Shown here: positions 3,913 through 62,170 of the stretch, piece by piece
How positions within the stretch are numbered: position 1 is the first letter of the stretch
Layout: every line of letters begins with the position of its first letter
Assembly (NCBI GenBank): GCA_030265395.1
Contig: JARFYF010000002.1
Coordinates: forward strand, 61,606,850 to 61,670,849
DNA from: Rhina ancylostomus
Taxonomy: Eukaryota
DNA: 64,000 bases
Direction of reading: 5' to 3'
The notes under the pieces: generated by a model
The model's database searches: none
What the model was told of the DNA's origin: nothing
What the model saw: only the letters and a program-made list of their open reading frames with translations
Position numbers and translations under genes: made by a program

Positions 3913-4140
3913 GAAAAACCTGCAGGTGCTGCAAATCCAATATAACAATTGAGAATGAAGGAAATACTCAGCAGGTCAAGCAGCATTTGTGGGGAGAGAA
4001 ACAAGAGTTGACGTTTCAGGTTGAGGACCTTTCATCAGAACTTGAAAGTGAGGAAACAAACGTGTCTTAAGTTGCAGAGAGCAAGAAGATTTGAGAGAAT
4101 GGAGGATGCAGACCAAACTTGCCAAGGTAACAATTAATTC
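3913..4140 (-). mobile_element. Penelope-like element terminal (pseudo-LTR) fragment
   Basis: Shares the block ggaaatactcagcaggtcaagcagcat(c/t)tgtgg with copies at 4.6, 12.2, 20.3, 24.4, 37.5 and 62.1 kb; the 24.4 kb copy adjoins a Penelope ORF remnant. Confidence 0.75.
4006..4043 (-). ncRNA. Minimal type I hammerhead ribozyme motif within Penelope-like repeat
   Basis: Minus strand reads AGTT-CTGATGA-A-AGGT(CCTCA)ACCT-GAAA-C-GTC-AACT: core boxes CUGAUGA and GAAA, stem I AGTT/AACT, stem II AGGT/ACCT, GUC triplet, palindromic ACGU at stem III. Activity untested. Confidence 0.7.
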
Positions 4141-4145
4141 AAAAA

Positions 4146-4224
4146 CCAGCACCTGAGGTTAGGATTGAACCCGGGTCACTAGCTGTGAGGCGGTAGCTCT
4201 ACTAGCTGCCTCACTATGCCACCC
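4146..4224 (-). mobile_element. tRNA-derived SINE head (HE1/V-SINE-like) fragment
   Basis: Reverse complement gggtggcatagtgaggcagctagtagagct...gacccgggttcaatcct has A- and B-box-like motifs; same head as the SINEs at 13.2, 32.2 and 46.7 kb. Confidence 0.75.
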
Positions 4225-4620
4225 AAATTGTTGACATCTGTAACTTTTTTTCTTGCTTCTCACTTTCCTTCAGTGAAATGTGGTAGGTGGATGAAGACGT
4301 AATTATGGAGGGCTTTTAAAATGGTCATTCTCTGTCATTGGAGGTTCTTGGTTTCAAGTGGTAAACAATGCATTACTCTGCACTGAACTGAAGCAAGTCA
4401 GGGATTTAATAAAGGATTGCCAAACTTTCTGAAGTGATGATGCCGTTTTCTACATGTTGTTACATTCATGGCCTTGGTCAATCTGTGCCTCTGCTGCTTA
4501 TGATGCCTTTGTTCTCATTTTAACCTTCTGCAGAAACTTTTTTTTATTGAACAAAAGTCCCTAAATGCAGGAGTCTAGGGCTAGACGATACTCTTAGCAG
4601 GAAAAGAAAATTTCTTAAAG

Positions 4621-4785
4621 AGAAACAGAACAATTTGGAATCATGTAGCAGGTCAGGCAGCATCTGTGGAGATGGAATCACTGTTAATGTTTCAGGTTGA
4701 TGGCCTTTCATCAGTTCATTGACACTGCCTAAACTGCTGACATTTTCCCACATTTTTGTTTTTACTTTAGATTTTCAACTGTAAC
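4621..4785. mobile_element. Fold-back Penelope-derived mini-element with central hammerhead-like motif
   Basis: Arm 4621-4664 is roughly the reverse complement of arm 4721-4763; 4681-4717 (-) reads CTGATGA-A-AGG(CCATCAA)CCT-GAAAC-ATT. Confidence 0.7.
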
Positions 4786-5183
4786 ACATTACTTTTGGTG
4801 AAAATATCTGAGTTGGTAGAGTAAAAAAAAGAAATCTGGCATCAAAAAGCAATCCTTTATCCAAAGTTTCAGTAGTGTACTCAGGCAACCAGGATCACAT
4901 GCAAGCTTTAAGGCAATTCCATTATTTCCTGCATGTCTACTGAAATCATACATCCAGACAGAAGATCCTCTTTGACCCACTTCAGCATCCTTGCTGCAAA
5001 GAAGTCTCAGATGTAATGGACTTCATTTTTGTGCTGCCTCTCCTTGAAAAGACCCATCTTATCTGACTTGCAATCAACCTCATTAATAGGATTGCCTTTG
5101 TTCCAGTTTCTCGAATTTATACTGAAATTTCATTCCGTTGAACATGATGATTCTCTTTTAGTGTTTCACTTTGTTCTGTATTG

Positions 5184-12132: not shown

Positions 12133-12445
12133 AAAAAAACTGCTGAGGCTAGAAATCTGGAAGTAATACAGACAATGCTGGAAACATTCAGCAGGTCAAG
12201 CAGCATCTGTGTATGGGGAAGCAGTAAACATTTTGGGTAGCTGCTCCTATTAAGCCATTTGGACTTGCACTATCAGAGATACTCCCTTTGTTCTACACAT
12301 TCCTCCTTTACCTTCTCTCCTACTGAAAATAAACTCTCTCTTTCCCAATTCTGAAGAAGGATCCCAGACCTAAAAGGTGAACAATTTCTCCTTCCACAGG
12401 CACTGCCTGATCTGTTGAGTGTTTCAGCATTTTCTACATTTCTAC
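12133..12445. mobile_element. Fold-back Penelope-derived element
   Basis: Arm ~12165-12238 is roughly the reverse complement of arm ~12368-12441; decayed hammerhead CTGAAGA-AGGATCCCAGACCT-AAAA at 12351-12375 (+). Confidence 0.7.
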
Positions 12446-12454
12446 AGGATCTGT

Positions 12455-12852
12455 CTCAGAATCCCATTGCACTTCACAAACACAGAGGTACTTCTTCACT
12501 GTTGCAAAATAGGAACCACGACAATTTATTTGCAAGCAGCAAGAACCCACAAAATGACAAAGCTGCAACAACCATACATTTTCCTGATTGTGATTGGAAG
12601 ATTATTATTGGCTAGGTTGCCAGAGTTAACTCCCTTGCTCTTTGAAGCAATAGATTTCAATCTATTGAAACCACCCAAAGCAGCAGACAGTACTTCAGTT
12701 TGATATCTCTTCTGGAAGATTGGCACCTTGATTCATGCAGCATTAATGGGTCAGCCTAGATATTTTACTGCTTATATTTTTGGAGTGGGATTTGAAATCT
12801 ACAACCTTCTGATTCTGACGTGTGTATGGGTCCAATTGTGCCAAGGTGACAC
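12455..12852 (-). mobile_element. DeuSINE (SacSINE1/AmnSINE1-like), near full length
   Basis: Reverse-strand head (ggagtgggatttgaaatctacaaccttctgattc) and Deu-domain-like core (tattggctagg...aactcccttgctctttgaa...tcagcctagat); homologous to 44.2 and 47.2 kb copies. Confidence 0.75.
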
Positions 12853-20180: not shown

Positions 20181-20335
20181 TAAACAAAATTGCTGGAAAT
20201 GCAAAACATCTGATGAATGGTCCCAGACCTGAAATGCTAACTGTTTCTTTTTCCACAGGTGCTTTGTGAACTGCTCAGTGTTTCTAACATATTCTATTTT
20301 TATTTTGGATTTCTAGCATCCTACAGTTTTCTTCT
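20181..20335 (+). mobile_element. Penelope-derived mini-element with hammerhead-like motif and short inverted arm
   Basis: CTGATGA-AT-GGTC(CCA)GACC-T-GAAAT at 20210-20235; 20181-20202 is roughly inverted relative to 20278-20302. Confidence 0.65.
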
Positions 20336-22269
20336 GTTTTCTTAACAATTTAAGTGATATTATTCAGCAGGCTAATTTACCAAGGTGGAAGCACTTGGTG
20401 GAAGAATGGTACTGTGCTATACTTCCTCAAATGTGGGACTGATTGTTGGCATTGGGAGATTTGTGTTCGGAAACACTTTCTCCACATTTTTTTGGCCGAA
20501 CAGAAGGTATCCCATTTTTCATATGTTGAAGAAGGAGGAATTTGAAAGGGGCATTGGAGGGTAGTGGGAGAGAAACACATTCTGGAGCTATCCATTCACT
20601 GGGATCTGTTGAGTTCAAGTTCATTTTTCTGGACCTTTTCACAAGAGCACTTTATTCTCAGGAGACTTCAGTCATGTCACTTTGCAGGAGCTCTGTTTAT
20701 TGTTTTGCAGTTGATTTATCACCCCTTCAGTTTCTGCTGATGAAGTTACAAAAGTTCTCAATGTTTAGCTACTGATTCAAGAGAGCCACAGGGGATATTT
20801 GTCTGGGCCATCCAATTTACTGGGCATTCATCAATAAGGCAAGTTACCATTGCTGCCTTGTCCCAAACAGCTTAATTACACAACTGGATGGTCATCCCAG
20901 ACTGATAACTGAGAGCTGTCATGAAGTCACATTGTCAGTATGGAGTCTCAGTTATGATTTGACAACAGAGACAAATGATTTGGACTTGGTTATTGAAGGA
21001 TAATTACTGTTTCCAAAGCTCGTACTGCCTCTTGATGCATCACGGCAGTGAAGCAGGTGCAGACAATAGGAAGAAATTAACAAGCCTTTGGTACACAAAG
21101 TCTGGGTAAGATGAAGGTGCCTTGTTATGTGTAACCAGAGTTTTATAAATTGTTGGAATATTNNNNNATGCTTCACAGCTTGGCAATCAAGAATGATTGG
21201 CAGACTAAAAACAGAATGCTGAAAATGCTCAGGTGGCATCTATGAAGAGAGGACCAGAGTTAACATCATGGATTAATGACTAGTCCCTAACTCTGACTGG
21301 TTATTGAAATGATAAGTTGCACACGGATTTTTGCAATGTGGTTGTACAGGAGATTTGGGGCAATAGAAACCTTAAGGTTTTAGAAAATGGTAGGGAAAAG
21401 ATTTATACTTCACTCAGTCTGATTATTGTTTATAAATTGTTTTTTGAAAAAAGCTCAGTATTTCCTGGCAGTGATGAGCTGCCCATGTTCACCACTAGTC
21501 TGTCTGCTAAAACCGTACCTGCTTTGAGTTGATCCCCAGACGAGCACTTCGCAGAAGCTGTGCTGAACCTCCTCAATGAGGTCCTGCAAAGCGCAGGACT
21601 AGAATTAGTCACACCCACAACTATTCAGAAACATTTTTAAAAAAAGACCAAATTACATATGTGTCCTTTGGATTATTAGCAACCCTTCCTCTCCATTGAA
21701 ATTAAGAGAGTTAATTTTTTTTTGTGTGTGTATGCTAGTGTGATGCAGTCTCGGTGAGCACGTTCCCAAGAATGAACATTGGAGATTTGCAGTAAGTTGG
21801 TGCTCCACCTCTGCATCTCAATGATGTAGTGTTACCAGTACAATTTCAGCAAACACCCAGCTGGAACTCTGGGGCTTCCGCATCTGTTCATGCTTGCAGG
21901 GGTGCCCTGATTTTTAAAAAGGGAAATGTCAATGGTTCCACTTGAAGCAGCTGGCATTTCTTGGGTACATCTGACTCAAAGCTTCTGTGCCCATGTGGTG
22001 TGAATCCAACAGGAATGCCAAGCAATTCTACACTACTCCTTGTTCAGGATGCAATCACTCTACACCTTGCCTATCCCAGGCAGTAATCCGGCTGCTTTCC
22101 TGTATTTTGGCACAAAGCGTCCTCTGGTCAGAAGTTACTATTCTGTCAGTGAATTTCCAGTTGGTGCTCTTCATTTTTATTCTAAATTATTGGATCCGTC
22201 CTTGTTAAAATAAGTTGATGTAAAATAAGTATCAATAATTTCATCAAATGTTGAATAAAATAATAAAAA

Positions 22270-23733: not shown

Positions 23734-24386
23734 CCTGCGCTGATTAAGCTTTGCAGTACAAAATGTCTGCCTTTGCAGTTCTCAAGGATTGCCTGTTCAT
23801 TCGGGTTATAGCTCTGGAAGGTTAGATGGTTGTGATAAATTACCTTTTGGAAAGCACTTTATTTCTCATTACATCAGATGCTAAAATAGCAAACTCTGCT
23901 TTGCTTTGCTTATTGTGTTTGACCCAGTTTGCAATCATTTTATATGTTTTGTCTGTTAGTAATGTTTGGTAACTGGCTGATGCTGGTGTTTAGAAATTTG
24001 CAAATCATTTATTAGTGATCCTAAAATCCTGAAAGTTCCACAGAGCATAATTCATATAATCGTGTCTATAAAATGGCAAACTCAATTGAAAGAAGATTGG
24101 TGATTATTATATTCATCATGTTATCCTCAAAGCATTTATTTATACCACAAGTGCCTTGAAATTACATTGAGCACATGCTCTTGCATACAAATGAGAATAA
24201 ATGAGAAATTTAGAGCCTTTGGCATGTTTTGACTGATTAAACAATTGGATGGTGGAACTACTTGTTAGGCTCAACTACCAGGATTCTGACGTATGTGGAA
24301 ATGCTCTTGGAGGAAGATATGTAAAAGGGCCTTTGCACTGAACCTGGTAACAAACTTGAAACTTCAAACAAAAATTCTTTCTGGGC

Positions 24387-24672
24387 TTAAAACAGAAAAT
24401 GCTGGGGGGGGGGCCCGGGGAAACTGAACAAGTCAGACAGCATGTGTGNNNNNNNNNNGACAGACCACCGTGCGAACACCAAATCCATCCTTCTGTGTTG
24501 GGAGAAGTACAAGTCATGTGCTGCTTCACCTGGAAAGTCTGTTTGGGTCTCTGGGTGGTGGGAAGGGAAGAGGTGGAAAGTGATGATGGAAGATTGCGCC
24601 AGGGAGTCATGAAGGGAGCAATGCCAGGAGGGAAGGGCGAACATGTTTGGTGGTGGAATCTTGTTTGAGGAT
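24387..24672 (-). mobile_element. Penelope-like retroelement ORF remnant (linker + GIY-YIG start) joined to its terminal repeat
   Basis: Minus frames give SLHDSLAQSS and PKQTFQVKQHMTCTSPNTEGWIWCSHGGL, resembling Penelope-like SLRDSLV.S and F.V...FTC.S.NVVYCI.C..CGL.YIGET; terminal repeat at 24387-24448. Confidence 0.8.
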
Positions 24673-25749
24673 AGGTTCTCTGTACAGTGATCACCCTAGA
24701 GTAACGGCATCTTAGTGCAGTTGGAAAGGGTTATGGTGAGACCACTTCTGGAATATCTCTTGACTCTCTACTTAAGGATATACGTGCAATAGGAGTGAAA
24801 TGAATGTTCGTAAGCTTTAGATAACTTGCTCTTTCCTTGTGGTTTGTATGAGAACAGGCTATTTCTGCCTGCCATCGTTTTTTCAGGCTGCTGCCCATCT
24901 TCCTTCCTCCCTCAACGAATGGTGCAATTTCTTTGGTATCATGAGAGTCTGAAATCTTGTAAGCATACAGCACTAGAATTGGGATTGTGGCATGAGAGAG
25001 GGCAACTCTATCACAATCTAGAGTCCTGATGCTGGGGGAGGGGGGTGTGGGCCTGTGTAATAGTCTCTCAAATGTTTCACTGATTAAATGTTTGGGAATG
25101 AAGCATTAATGCCTTTTGACACTTCCAGTGAATGTATTGCTGTGCTTGGTGAAATGAATGAAAATAATTTCCTAAATNNNNNNNNNNNNNNNNNNNNNNN
25201 NNNNNNNNNNNNNNNNNNNNNNNNNNNNNNNNNNNNNNNNNNNNNNNNNNNNNNNNNNNNNNNNNNNNNNNNNNNNNNNNNNNNNNNNNNNNNNNNNNNN
25301 NNNNNNNNNNNNNNNNNNNNNNNNNNNNNNNNNNNNNNNNNNNNNNNNNNNNNNNNNNNNNNNNNNNNNNNNNNNNNNNNNNNNNNNNNNNNNNNNNNNN
25401 NNNNNNNNNNNNNNNNNNNNNNNNNNNNNNNNNNNNNNNNNNNNNNNNNNNNNNNNNNNNNNNNNNNNNNNNNNNNNNNNNNNNNNNNNNNNNNNNNNNN
25501 NNNNNNNNNNNNNNNNNNNNNNNNNNNNNNNNNNNNNNNNNNNNNNNNNNNNNNNNNNNNNNNNNNNNNNNNNNNNNNNNNNNNNNNNNNNNNNNNNNNN
25601 NNNNNNNNNNNNNNNNNNNNNNNNNNNNNNNNNNNNNNNNNNNNNNNNNNNNNNNNNNNNNNNNNNNNNNNNNNNNNNNNNNNNNNNNNNNNNNNNNNNN
25701 NNNNNNNNNNNNNNNNNNNNNNNNNNNNNNNNNNNNNNNNNNNNNNNNN

Positions 25750-35330: not shown

Positions 35331-37519
35331 AAGTTGGTCTGTGCTGAGTAGGAAGGATTTAGCATGTCAGATGGAAGCCTACTGCTCAGTGGGGTAGTAA
35401 ACTTGTCTGTGAGACCAGTAAGGATTGTCCTATGTATTTGGTTCAATTTGCCATGGAAGGCCAGCCACTGACCAAGTGAAAGCTGCCTTTTTCTTTCATC
35501 GATTGTGTTTCACTTAGTAATGTTTTGCCTCTTTAAGAACCAATTGCAACACTTTTAAACATGAGGCTAGTGATTGCATGGTTCCCCCCCCATTTATTCT
35601 GCGCTAAAACATTTGCATATGTTCAGTGTCTGTGCATTACACTTAATATGTACCCTGAAGATGCAGCCAAATCAATATTCATATTGTTCCAATTTTCCTC
35701 TCCCAGGATGTATAATACTGCTGCCCCTTGCTCGGGTCTGGTAAACTTCCCTACCATCAGAGTTTCTGGTATTTTTCAAGAATTTTAACTTCAATAATTG
35801 CCTGAAAGCACTACTGAAACATTAGTCAATCTCACCCTTTCACCCCTTCACCTGTCTAGCATGTTTTTGTGACCAAAATGTTCTTCTATTCTGTAATATG
35901 AACCCTGGTAATGGTAAGCATACCACCCAACACATTTCCTTCTCAACAAGAGAGTTCATTTTTATACAGATTTTTTTTCCTATGTTTCCTAACACCTGTC
36001 TTAGCTCTATTTGTCATTATAGTCATCGTCACACTGTGCACATCATTCACGTGGATAAATCAGCCCTATCACAAGGACATTGGACTGTCATTTCTAAAAA
36101 TTACATTGTAACAAGTATTTGTTTGCATCATTTTAATGAAAAATTAATTAAGATCCAATCATTGCAACAAGGTGGTGTTGAGAATAATTACCTCACAATA
36201 CAGCTTTGTTATAATTCATTTTCTAATTTGCTGCAATGTTATTTGGTACATAAATATTGAAATTAAATGATTGTGTTCTATTTTACACTGCCCGAAGCTG
36301 TGATGTGAACCAATGCTAATAGACAGTATAGTTTGGACTTGAACTAATTGAATTTCACCCTAGCAACTGTTTTGAACTGATTATTAGTAAAAATGACAGT
36401 GATGCTGATGAACTGTCATATTTTAAGCACTGACATTTTATTAACAGTTTATTTGCAATGCAAATTTGGCTTTCAAAATAACTCTTCATGATGGCAATCC
36501 ATCATAATTTTCTAATGACAAATATAAATTGGATTATCAAATTCATACTCCAGTTTTGGCTTCCACATGCTTGAATAGTTCTGGGAGCTGCTGCTGCCTC
36601 ACTGTTCATCCATGTATATTGGGAAAGTATATTATCTTTTTAAAGGACTGCTGCTGTTTCAAAATGGTACAAAGTAAATACTAGGTAAATAGGCTGTTGT
36701 TGCTCAAAGTCTCACTGATTTTAAAGGTCAAATATTCTGATAAAAATCATTGAAGACAGTTTTGAATTCAATAGACCATGGCATGCTTAAAGCAGTGACT
36801 ATTTGTGTACAGATGAGATTAAGGAGAAATTAAGTTGTCACACATAGCTACCTCACAGTGATGCTGCTGTGCCATATAAATATTTTCCTTGGGAGGCTGT
36901 CAAATGTTTTTTATTTTTTCATTTTCCTCATTCACGCCTTCAATTTCATTTAAAAATTTGTTCTTGGCTCATCTGATCACACTGAGTGTTGGTGATACTT
37001 TATAAAATCACAGTACATTGGTCAATTACATTTCTATGAAATACTTTTCTCTTGTATATTCATGAATTTGGAATGAAAATTACATTTTTATTTTGCTACG
37101 ATGCAGACCCCAAAGCTGTCACATTCACTGATGGTGATATTGGGTTGGCCAGTTCTGAAATGCTCTACCTGAATTTATATTCCCAGGGAAAGGAATGACC
37201 GATTTATGCTGAGTACATAATTGGGAGTAAATCTGATTTATCTCCTATTTCACCCCTTCACTGAAGTTTAAATCCAGCTGTTCCTTAACATTGTAGATTT
37301 TGTGTATGTTCTGTAACAATATTCTGAAAAGATTTTCATAGTGTCAAACTTTTTTGTATTGGGTGGTTTTCCTACCTTCATATGGCTCCTCGTGTTTGTG
37401 AAGGATTTACTCATCATTCAAAAGATGACTAGAAATTCTTCTGGTACCCTCACCAACTTTCCGTGATTATATTTGGACCTTATTCACAAAAGAGTACCTG
37501 CACCTGCGTACAATGAGTA

Positions 37520-37890
37520 CAATTCACAAAGGAGCTGGAGGAGCTCAATGGGTCAGACAGTATCTAATGAAGGAAATGACCAGTTGACAATTTGGGTTGA
37601 TACCCTTCATCAAGACTGGAAAGAAAGAGGGCAGATGGCCAGTATAAAAATGTGGGGGGGGGAGCAAGAGCTGGTGGGTGATGGGTTGGTCCAGGTGAGG
37701 GAGGGGGGGAGAGTGGGAATGATGCAAGACGCTGGGAAGTNNNNNNNNNNGTTAGGTGGAACTGAAGAAGATGGAATCGGATAGGAAAAGGCAGTGGAGC
37801 ATGGAATAAAGGGAAGGAGGTGGGGAGGAGAACCAGTGGGAGGAATGTGTGGGTGATGCAGATGGTGGGGGAGGGGAAAGAGATAGGTGA
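37520..37890 (-). mobile_element. Penelope-like element 3' region with decayed hammerhead motif
   Basis: 37581-37618 reads on minus CAGTC-TTGATGA-AGGGT(ATCA)ACCC-AAAT-TGTC-AACTG; G-rich flank typical of the family. Confidence 0.7.
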
Positions 37891-40189: not shown

Positions 40190-40560
40190 TAATGCTAAAT
40201 AATAGCAAAATATTCTCAATGTCAGATGGCATCTGCGAAGAAGAAAAGCAATTAAATGTTTTGGTCAATGATCTTTTGTCAGAGCTGGGAAATGTTACAA
40301 TGAAATGTTTTTATGTTGCAGAGAAAGTGGAGAGAGGCAGATAGAACACGAGGGCAGGGCTGTGACTGGGTGGACTCCAGGAGAGAACAGGCAACACAAG
40401 TACTGATGGTGCCAGCTGAAAGAGAGTGATAAAGGCTACTGAATAACAGAAGGGAAGTCTGAGGGAAGTGTAAATAGGAGGAGACAACTGAAATCTGTTT
40501 ATGCCAGACAAAGAGAATTGGGGGGGGGGGGGGAAAGACTGAATGCTGGAAATATGATAC
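40190..40560 (-). mobile_element. Old Penelope-like 3' fragment
   Basis: ggcatctgcgaagaagaaaagcaattaaatgttttggtcaatgatcttttgtcagagctggg...gttgcagaga parallels 3980-4085. Confidence 0.55.
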
Positions 40561-62044: not shown

Positions 62045-62170
62045 TCTCACCACCTCTCTTGGTCAGTTCTGATGAAAAGTCATCAGCCTGAAATATTTGA
62101 CTCCATTTTTTTCTCCATACAACTGCTGCCTGATCTGCTGGGTACTTCCAGCATTTTCTGTTCTTTGTCA
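62045..62170 (+). mobile_element. Penelope-like terminal fragment with hammerhead-like motif
   Basis: CAGTT-CTGATGA-AAAGTCATCAGCCT-GAAA-TATTT-GACT at 62064-62102, then ctgcctgatctgctgggtacttccagcattttctg. Confidence 0.7.

Follow-up and report, generated by a model that had tools for sequence, protein, structure and literature searches.

The minus strand at positions 4006-4042 carries a minimal type I hammerhead ribozyme motif. Within the 64-kb window (the whole stretch of DNA that was analysed), it is the sole copy in which the 14-letter core and both 4-bp stems are complete, and the initial annotation was right to call it the best preserved there. We consider it very probable that the motif is a hammerhead from the 3' end of a Penelope-like element (PLE) and that this copy is an inert fossil that survived by chance; in the masters of the family, the motif likely acted as a slow, dimer-only, protein-assisted self-cutter. 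The insertion and the parts of the motif are as follows.

3915..4132, minus strand: whole insertion, a family A Penelope-like element reduced to its 3' end (pseudo-LTR) by 5' truncation
4006..4042, minus strand: whole minimal type I hammerhead motif, read directly from the sequence
4039..4042, minus strand: stem I 5' strand AGUU, read from the sequence; partner 4009-4006
4032..4038, minus strand: catalytic box C3-A9, CUGAUGA, read from the sequence
4031, minus strand: additional A that separates A9 from 10.1, found generally in PLE minimal hammerheads
4018..4030, minus strand: stem II, 4 bp with a 5-nt loop; closing pair 10.1-11.1 is A-U
4011..4017, minus strand: GAAA box and palindrome A15.1-C-G-U16.1, without a monomeric stem III, read from the sequence
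4009..4010, minus strand: predicted scissile bond 3' of C17; the family has U17
4006..4009, minus strand: stem I 3' strand AACU, read from the sequence

Stem II is formed by AGGU (4030-4027) and ACCU (4021-4018) around the loop CCUCA, and is followed on the minus strand by GAAA (4017-4014), C (4013) and the triplet GUC (4012-4010). The boxes, the two 4-bp stems, the GUC and the cut between 4010 and 4009 all agree with the initial annotation; its span of 4006 to 4043 starts correctly and ends one base past stem I. The palindrome ACGU (4014-4011) stands in place of helix III, as had been proposed. The copy has the CUGANGA and GAAA boxes flanking helix II, an NUH triplet and a 4-bp helix I, and is a member of an already described motif type. 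Its A-U at 10.1-11.1 is a standard pair but departs from the consensus preference for G-C, and the fifth stem II pair of family A, a C-G, is lost at 4022.

A loose two-box pattern matches the window 10 times against 6.6 expected, which is chance level. The motif rises above chance because the 14-letter core with a 14-base spacer is enriched across the 2.2-Gb genome (950 matches vs 15 in the reversed control) and because the copy belongs to a repeat defined by a sequence profile. With spacers of 10-19 bases, the core was found 3,772 times vs 169 in the reversed control. In 517,257 bases sampled at even spacing, the profile detected 124 copies (240 per Mb), against 0 in the reversed control, which extrapolates to a genome total of ~5x10^5 copies, mostly broken, in three families. 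A search with hammerhead models had been proposed in the initial annotation; the Rfam hammerhead covariance models gave no match at the motif, either at gathering level or at E<=10. In the window itself, the profile matched 10 times in the real sequence and 0 times in the reversed sequence. The other copies and fragments in the window are the following.

4613..4714, minus strand: closest copy on the same strand, 676 nt upstream, with its 5' end at C3, a broken palindrome (ACAU) and a stem II of 3 bp
4718..4789, plus strand: inverted arm belonging to the 4714 copy, a weak match (17.6 bits), in the fold-back layout typical of PLE insertions
12134..12458, 12238-12134 on the minus and 12261-12458 on the plus strand: divergent pair of family A stubs, cores broken
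20209..20325, plus strand: family A stub with its 5' end 1 nt ahead of C3 and a broken palindrome
21207..21280, minus strand: family A fragment without the first box
37494..37742, minus strand: family B stub, core broken
40208..40440, minus strand: degenerate stub, best fit to the family A model, core broken
62064..62164, plus strand: family A stub with its 5' end 5 nt ahead of C3 and a broken palindrome

The insertion at 3915-4132 is 218 bp long and without an ORF; it begins ~110 nt before C3 and stops at the usual family 3' end. Its origin is seen in longer copies, which run upstream into decayed coding sequence with remnants of reverse transcriptase (RT), zinc-finger linker and GIY-YIG endonuclease, and these bear out the pseudo-LTR identity first assigned from the sequence. 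In a DNA search with the coding remnant, the repeat lay downstream on the same strand at 28 of 30 loci. Among 60 loci with GIY-YIG remnants, chosen by a protein query, 40 had the repeat just downstream (22 family A, 14 B and 4 D). The RT and GIY-YIG motifs of the family lie in decayed frames; a C-X4-C-X2-C linker is seen in the better kept of 23 translations, with RT motifs further upstream. Pfam analysis of decayed ORF pieces gave one weak GIY-YIG match (1 of 7 pieces, E=0.0063, under the cut-off), and homologous proteins were found in skate and ray records, one of them bearing RVT_1. A CX2-5CxxC linker before the endonuclease is a mark of the Neptune/Nematis type (PMC8557442), and the element is, judged by its sequence, an EN+ Penelope-like element of this type. 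Divergent fold-back pairs, a layout typical of PLE insertions, numbered 47 among 395 matches. No full-length element with an ORF between two pseudo-LTRs was present among the 60 loci examined, nor was there a junction of pseudo-LTR to ORF among 200 downstream flanks, and an intact RT was not recovered. By eye, no clear host exon was recognised among the 94 long frames of the window.

Sorting 382 matches by their tails alone placed 188 in family A, 95 in B and 59 in D, with 40 unassigned; the 4006-4042 copy belongs to family A. Two stem pairs differ between families. Pair 2.1-1.1 is U-A in family A and C-G in B and D (table 92, 16; 35, 67). Pair 10.1-11.1 is G-C in B and D, with an even TG/CA split of CpG decay, and G-U or A-U in A, where TG predominates, so that U is likely ancestral in that family. 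Among 55 copies picked by core only, 76% of cells pair, and their covariation score was matched in 5 of 500 shuffles; pairs with two-sided change were not above shuffle (469 of 500), and inside family A there was no association of 10.1 with 11.1 (p=0.44). This pattern amounts to a few compensatory events between masters, which suggests that selection on the fold acted in the masters and not in the copies, and that a working fold was likely maintained in them. The stem covariation to which the initial annotation had looked is borne out between families, where two pairs change; the independent events are few and the statistics modest.

The triplet also has a family state. Position 17 is U in 138 of 167 family A copies and C in 9, making GUU the family state, and in similar contigs from two runs, 80% of the depth reads U at this position in both. 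The GUC at 4012-4010 is the copy's own change. As separate observations, a subgroup of family B (for example L170 and L175) has A at position 7, a GUU triplet and a 3-bp stem I, and CCA is found at positions 2.1-4 in several copies of B and D, which suggests an ancestral C3-C4 CpG variant.

In family D, the A9 column holds C in 25 of 40 copies, followed by a conserved A (CUGAUG-C-A). A genome search for exact cores with a non-A at A9 returned 1,890 vs 5 in the control, and because 89 of the first 100 carry C (with 7 T and 4 G), we regard C as the state of a master and not as decay. These cores otherwise keep the stems, palindrome and GUC (for example L281:1501-1527:+), and the family D type is estimated at 7x10^4 copies. 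A tentative idea, to which we give rather little weight, is that family D either cuts, with a spare nucleotide between G8 and A9, the second A as the catalytic one and a sliding bulge, or spread widely with an inactive ribozyme, the 5' letters of which show where the copied RNA starts. If family D cuts, it is a type of hammerhead that escapes the published CUGANGA descriptor; set against the other families, it offers natural constructs for probing the need for cleavage and the identity of the catalytic A9. At G000:C1:120934316-120934412, three family D cores lie in a row on one strand with 35-base spacing, and a fourth is inverted 160 bases away; judging from this layout, the triple could be a tiny tandem able to dimerise in cis.

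The initial annotation had taken the extra A after CUGAUGA for a family-specific core variant. This A is present in 122 of 132 copies in family A, 64 of 71 in B and 37 of 41 in D, and a nucleotide between 9 and 10.1 is a general feature of the published minimal hammerheads, with the consensus CUGANGAH (Cervera and De la Pena 2014, PMC4209133). In our own count over the 56 motifs of Fig. S3 in that paper, 54 have the extra nucleotide, which is A in 30. The extra A thus occurs in all three families as well as in the published consensus, and the proposal of a family-specific variant fails. The CChMVd (+) hammerhead carries the same extra A between A9 and 10.1 (A10), for which a moderate rate decrease is reported, but it is a viroid type III ribozyme with stable helices and an active monomer (De la Pena and Flores 2001, as covered in the review PMC3705267).

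The motif agrees in most respects with the minimal hammerheads of Cervera and De la Pena (PMC4209133). Shared features are CUGANGA with one extra nucleotide, a short helix I, the absence of helix III with a palindromic 15.2-16.2, an NUH triplet (GUU in 15 of the 56 listed motifs), and occurrence mostly as solitary copies from truncated PLEs with inverted neighbours. It differs in having A-U at 10.1-11.1, where the consensus is G-C (A-U in 3 listed motifs), and in its short stem II of 4-5 bp; the sister family D differs further in its C at position 9, which is absent among the 56 motifs, all of which keep A9. In the parts of the supplement searched, the source lists no cartilaginous fish. Poseidon of Anolis carolinensis (PAc; Frangieh et al. 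2024, PMC11167929) likewise has a hammerhead in its pseudo-LTR, an uncut RNA template, and a tail ~110-120 nt downstream of the hammerhead where reverse transcription starts. By contrast, the element here has the Neptune/Nematis zinc-finger linker, and its hammerhead lies ~300-450 nt beyond the end of the ORF, the start of which was not located.

How such a motif would act can be sketched from the PLE literature. Minimal PLE hammerheads do not cut as monomers and cut weakly as dimers (PMC4209133), as a review likewise states (PMC6765202: inactive monomers, weakly active dimers). For the Anolis hammerhead, cleavage requires the protein of the element, and most insertion uses uncut RNA as its substrate (PMC11167929). 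In the masters, two hammerheads of one tandem transcript would pair through ACGU and so form the missing helix III; each would then cut the other's site, aided by the element protein, while uncut RNA would be the usual template. Reverse transcription would begin in the tail ~95-125 nt past C3 and run toward the 5' end of the RNA, which probably lies 2-4 nt before C3; such an RNA end would account for the pile of copies that start near C3. As a monomer, the present copy has a folding z-score of -0.96, its lowest-energy structure differs from the hammerhead, and a competing helix is predicted to bury U4-G8 by pairing with the cleavage strand (pair probability 0.95). The tendency is family-wide, with a mean pair probability of 0.78 in 7 GUU copies. 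On paper, a homodimer of the copy is perfect, with 4+4+4 pairs. With the 4714 copy as partner, helix III has a mismatch in both directions and stem I forms 3 or 1 of 4 pairs; the 4714 copy is a poor dimer partner, and there is no good partner nearby in cis.

Where the copies start bears on what was copied. Among family A copies taken without ORF selection, 64 of 154 start within -10 to +9 of C3, a density of 3.2 per nt vs 0.23 per nt further upstream (14-fold); 33 of 105 copies in family B and 15 of 49 in family D start in the same interval. Start calling was calibrated on truncated real copies, with a median error of 0-4 nt. In the window, the 4714, 20209 and 62064 copies start near C3, and the 4006-4042 copy, with its start at -110, falls outside this class. 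None of the three families has an excess of starts at the cut site (p=0.60, 0.91 and 0.16); in family A, 6 of 154 starts lie within 4 nt of it, or 0.67 per nt vs 0.70 nearby, a sample too small to resolve a cut-site class of a few percent. Letters shared before C3 reach back to about -4, and 48 stubs have no common sequence beyond 4 nt upstream of C3 that would mark a spliced leader. Uncut RNA starting at the first letters of the ribozyme is likely the main template, in so far as the starts of the copies reflect it, which agrees with one in vitro study. Neither the C9 variant nor the 5' pile-up was found in the literature searched; Lunse et al. 2017 (RNA Biol), which reportedly deals with PLE hammerhead variants, may already contain the C9 variant.

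The same data allow a second reading, in which the motif serves the masters as a structural or regulatory element (an RNA 5' end, or a protein-binding or promoter-proximal signal), cleavage is dispensable, and it is chiefly this role that preserves the letters of the hammerhead. The pile-up at the motif's first letters with no cut-site excess would fit this, as would the amplification of a sister family with C for A9 to an estimated 7x10^4 copies. In vitro, catalytic mutants of the Anolis element leave insertion unhindered, and no RNA ends were seen at its cut site (PMC11167929); Naiads, which have no hammerhead, are very successful (PMC8557442). However, boxes, palindrome and an NUH triplet persist in three families whose stems have changed in step, a pattern in keeping with catalysis. 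Cleavage does occur with the Anolis motif and is affected by mutation and rescue at C3/G8 (PMC11167929), and a cut-site class of a few percent is compatible with 154 copies. We regard a structural or regulatory role with dispensable cleavage as a minority possibility, somewhat improbable.

A further possibility is that the short copies are not truncated PLE ends and instead represent an independent non-autonomous element, SINE-like or a retrozyme, built on the hammerhead. Their sharp common 5' start and 3' end delimit a unit of ~100-125 nt, and non-LTR retrozymes with type I hammerheads derived from PLE pseudo-LTRs have been described, including one chondrichthyan case (bioRxiv 10.64898/2026.07.22.740005). 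Those retrozymes, however, consist of tandem units each with a complete hammerhead, whereas the copy here is solitary. It also has 110 nt of additional PLE sequence on its upstream side, copy starts are spread continuously as far as the ORF, the window holds no tandem array of complete hammerhead units, and the frequency of divergent fold-back pairs fits PLE integration, all of which make an independent element quite unlikely. Membership of the non-LTR retrozymes was likewise rejected for this copy, the window having no tandem array and the nearest same-strand copy being 676 nt off and broken. Family D copies were absent from the window.

With the short copies read as truncated PLE ends, what remains to be explained is how complete this one is. 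It is 86% identical to the family A majority on stable columns, a score exceeded by 33 of 177 copies, and has 22 differences from that majority, including the lost fifth stem II pair and the private C17. Among the 115 copies of family A that span the motif, 2 have a complete 14-letter core (one being this copy), and 1.9 are expected from per-site retention; boxes are retained in 18 of 115 vs 12.9% expected. The copy retains 27 of 28 stable motif columns vs 62 of 75 tail columns, and the 20209 copy scores equally on the stable motif columns despite its broken palindrome. Family A as a whole retains core columns slightly better than tail columns (0.83 vs 0.79, one-sided p=0.01), the trend is the reverse in B and D, and edge columns are biased by local alignment. 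Intact cores are thus no commoner than neutral decay predicts, and the core of this copy likely survived by chance; its "intact" state is survival at the neutral-decay rate and not a sign of function. The intact core with GUC that had been annotated is present, but its GUC is private in a GUU family and one stem II pair is gone.

That the copy is a kept, working ribozyme, which as a homodimer of two transcripts or with the help of a protein would cut host or read-through RNA at 4010/4009, is highly unlikely. In its favour are a core with 14 of 14 letters, two 4-bp stems, an unbroken CpG palindrome, GUC and the retained motif columns, and also the rarity of such cores (~935 in a family A estimated at 2.9x10^5 copies). 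Against it, core survival equals the neutral expectation, the copy had been chosen as the best of ten, a stem II pair is lost, a strong misfold is predicted, there is no cis partner, and in an 81-nt contig from a second organism, probably the orthologue (78 of 81 letters identical), C15.2 seems to be changed to U. This last change is placed from the position of one listed difference, and the contig stops short of unique flank. The copy itself is of little weight: ~900 cores look intact against a background of hundreds of thousands of decayed stubs, and it is one of them.

Three observations concern the surroundings of the motif. On the minus strand at ~4135-4222, a truncated tRNA-like head with high repeat depth, which we take to be that of a SINE, adjoins the 5' end of the insertion; no tRNA was called there. 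At 24275-24730, also on the minus strand, lies a decayed PLE linker/endonuclease coding remnant, after which no pseudo-LTR was detected. Past the cut site, the tail at 3990-3960, like the family tail, contains a pyrimidine tract ending in CAG together with self-complementary GCTG/CAGC blocks, features common to all three families that are possibly a splice acceptor or a hairpin.
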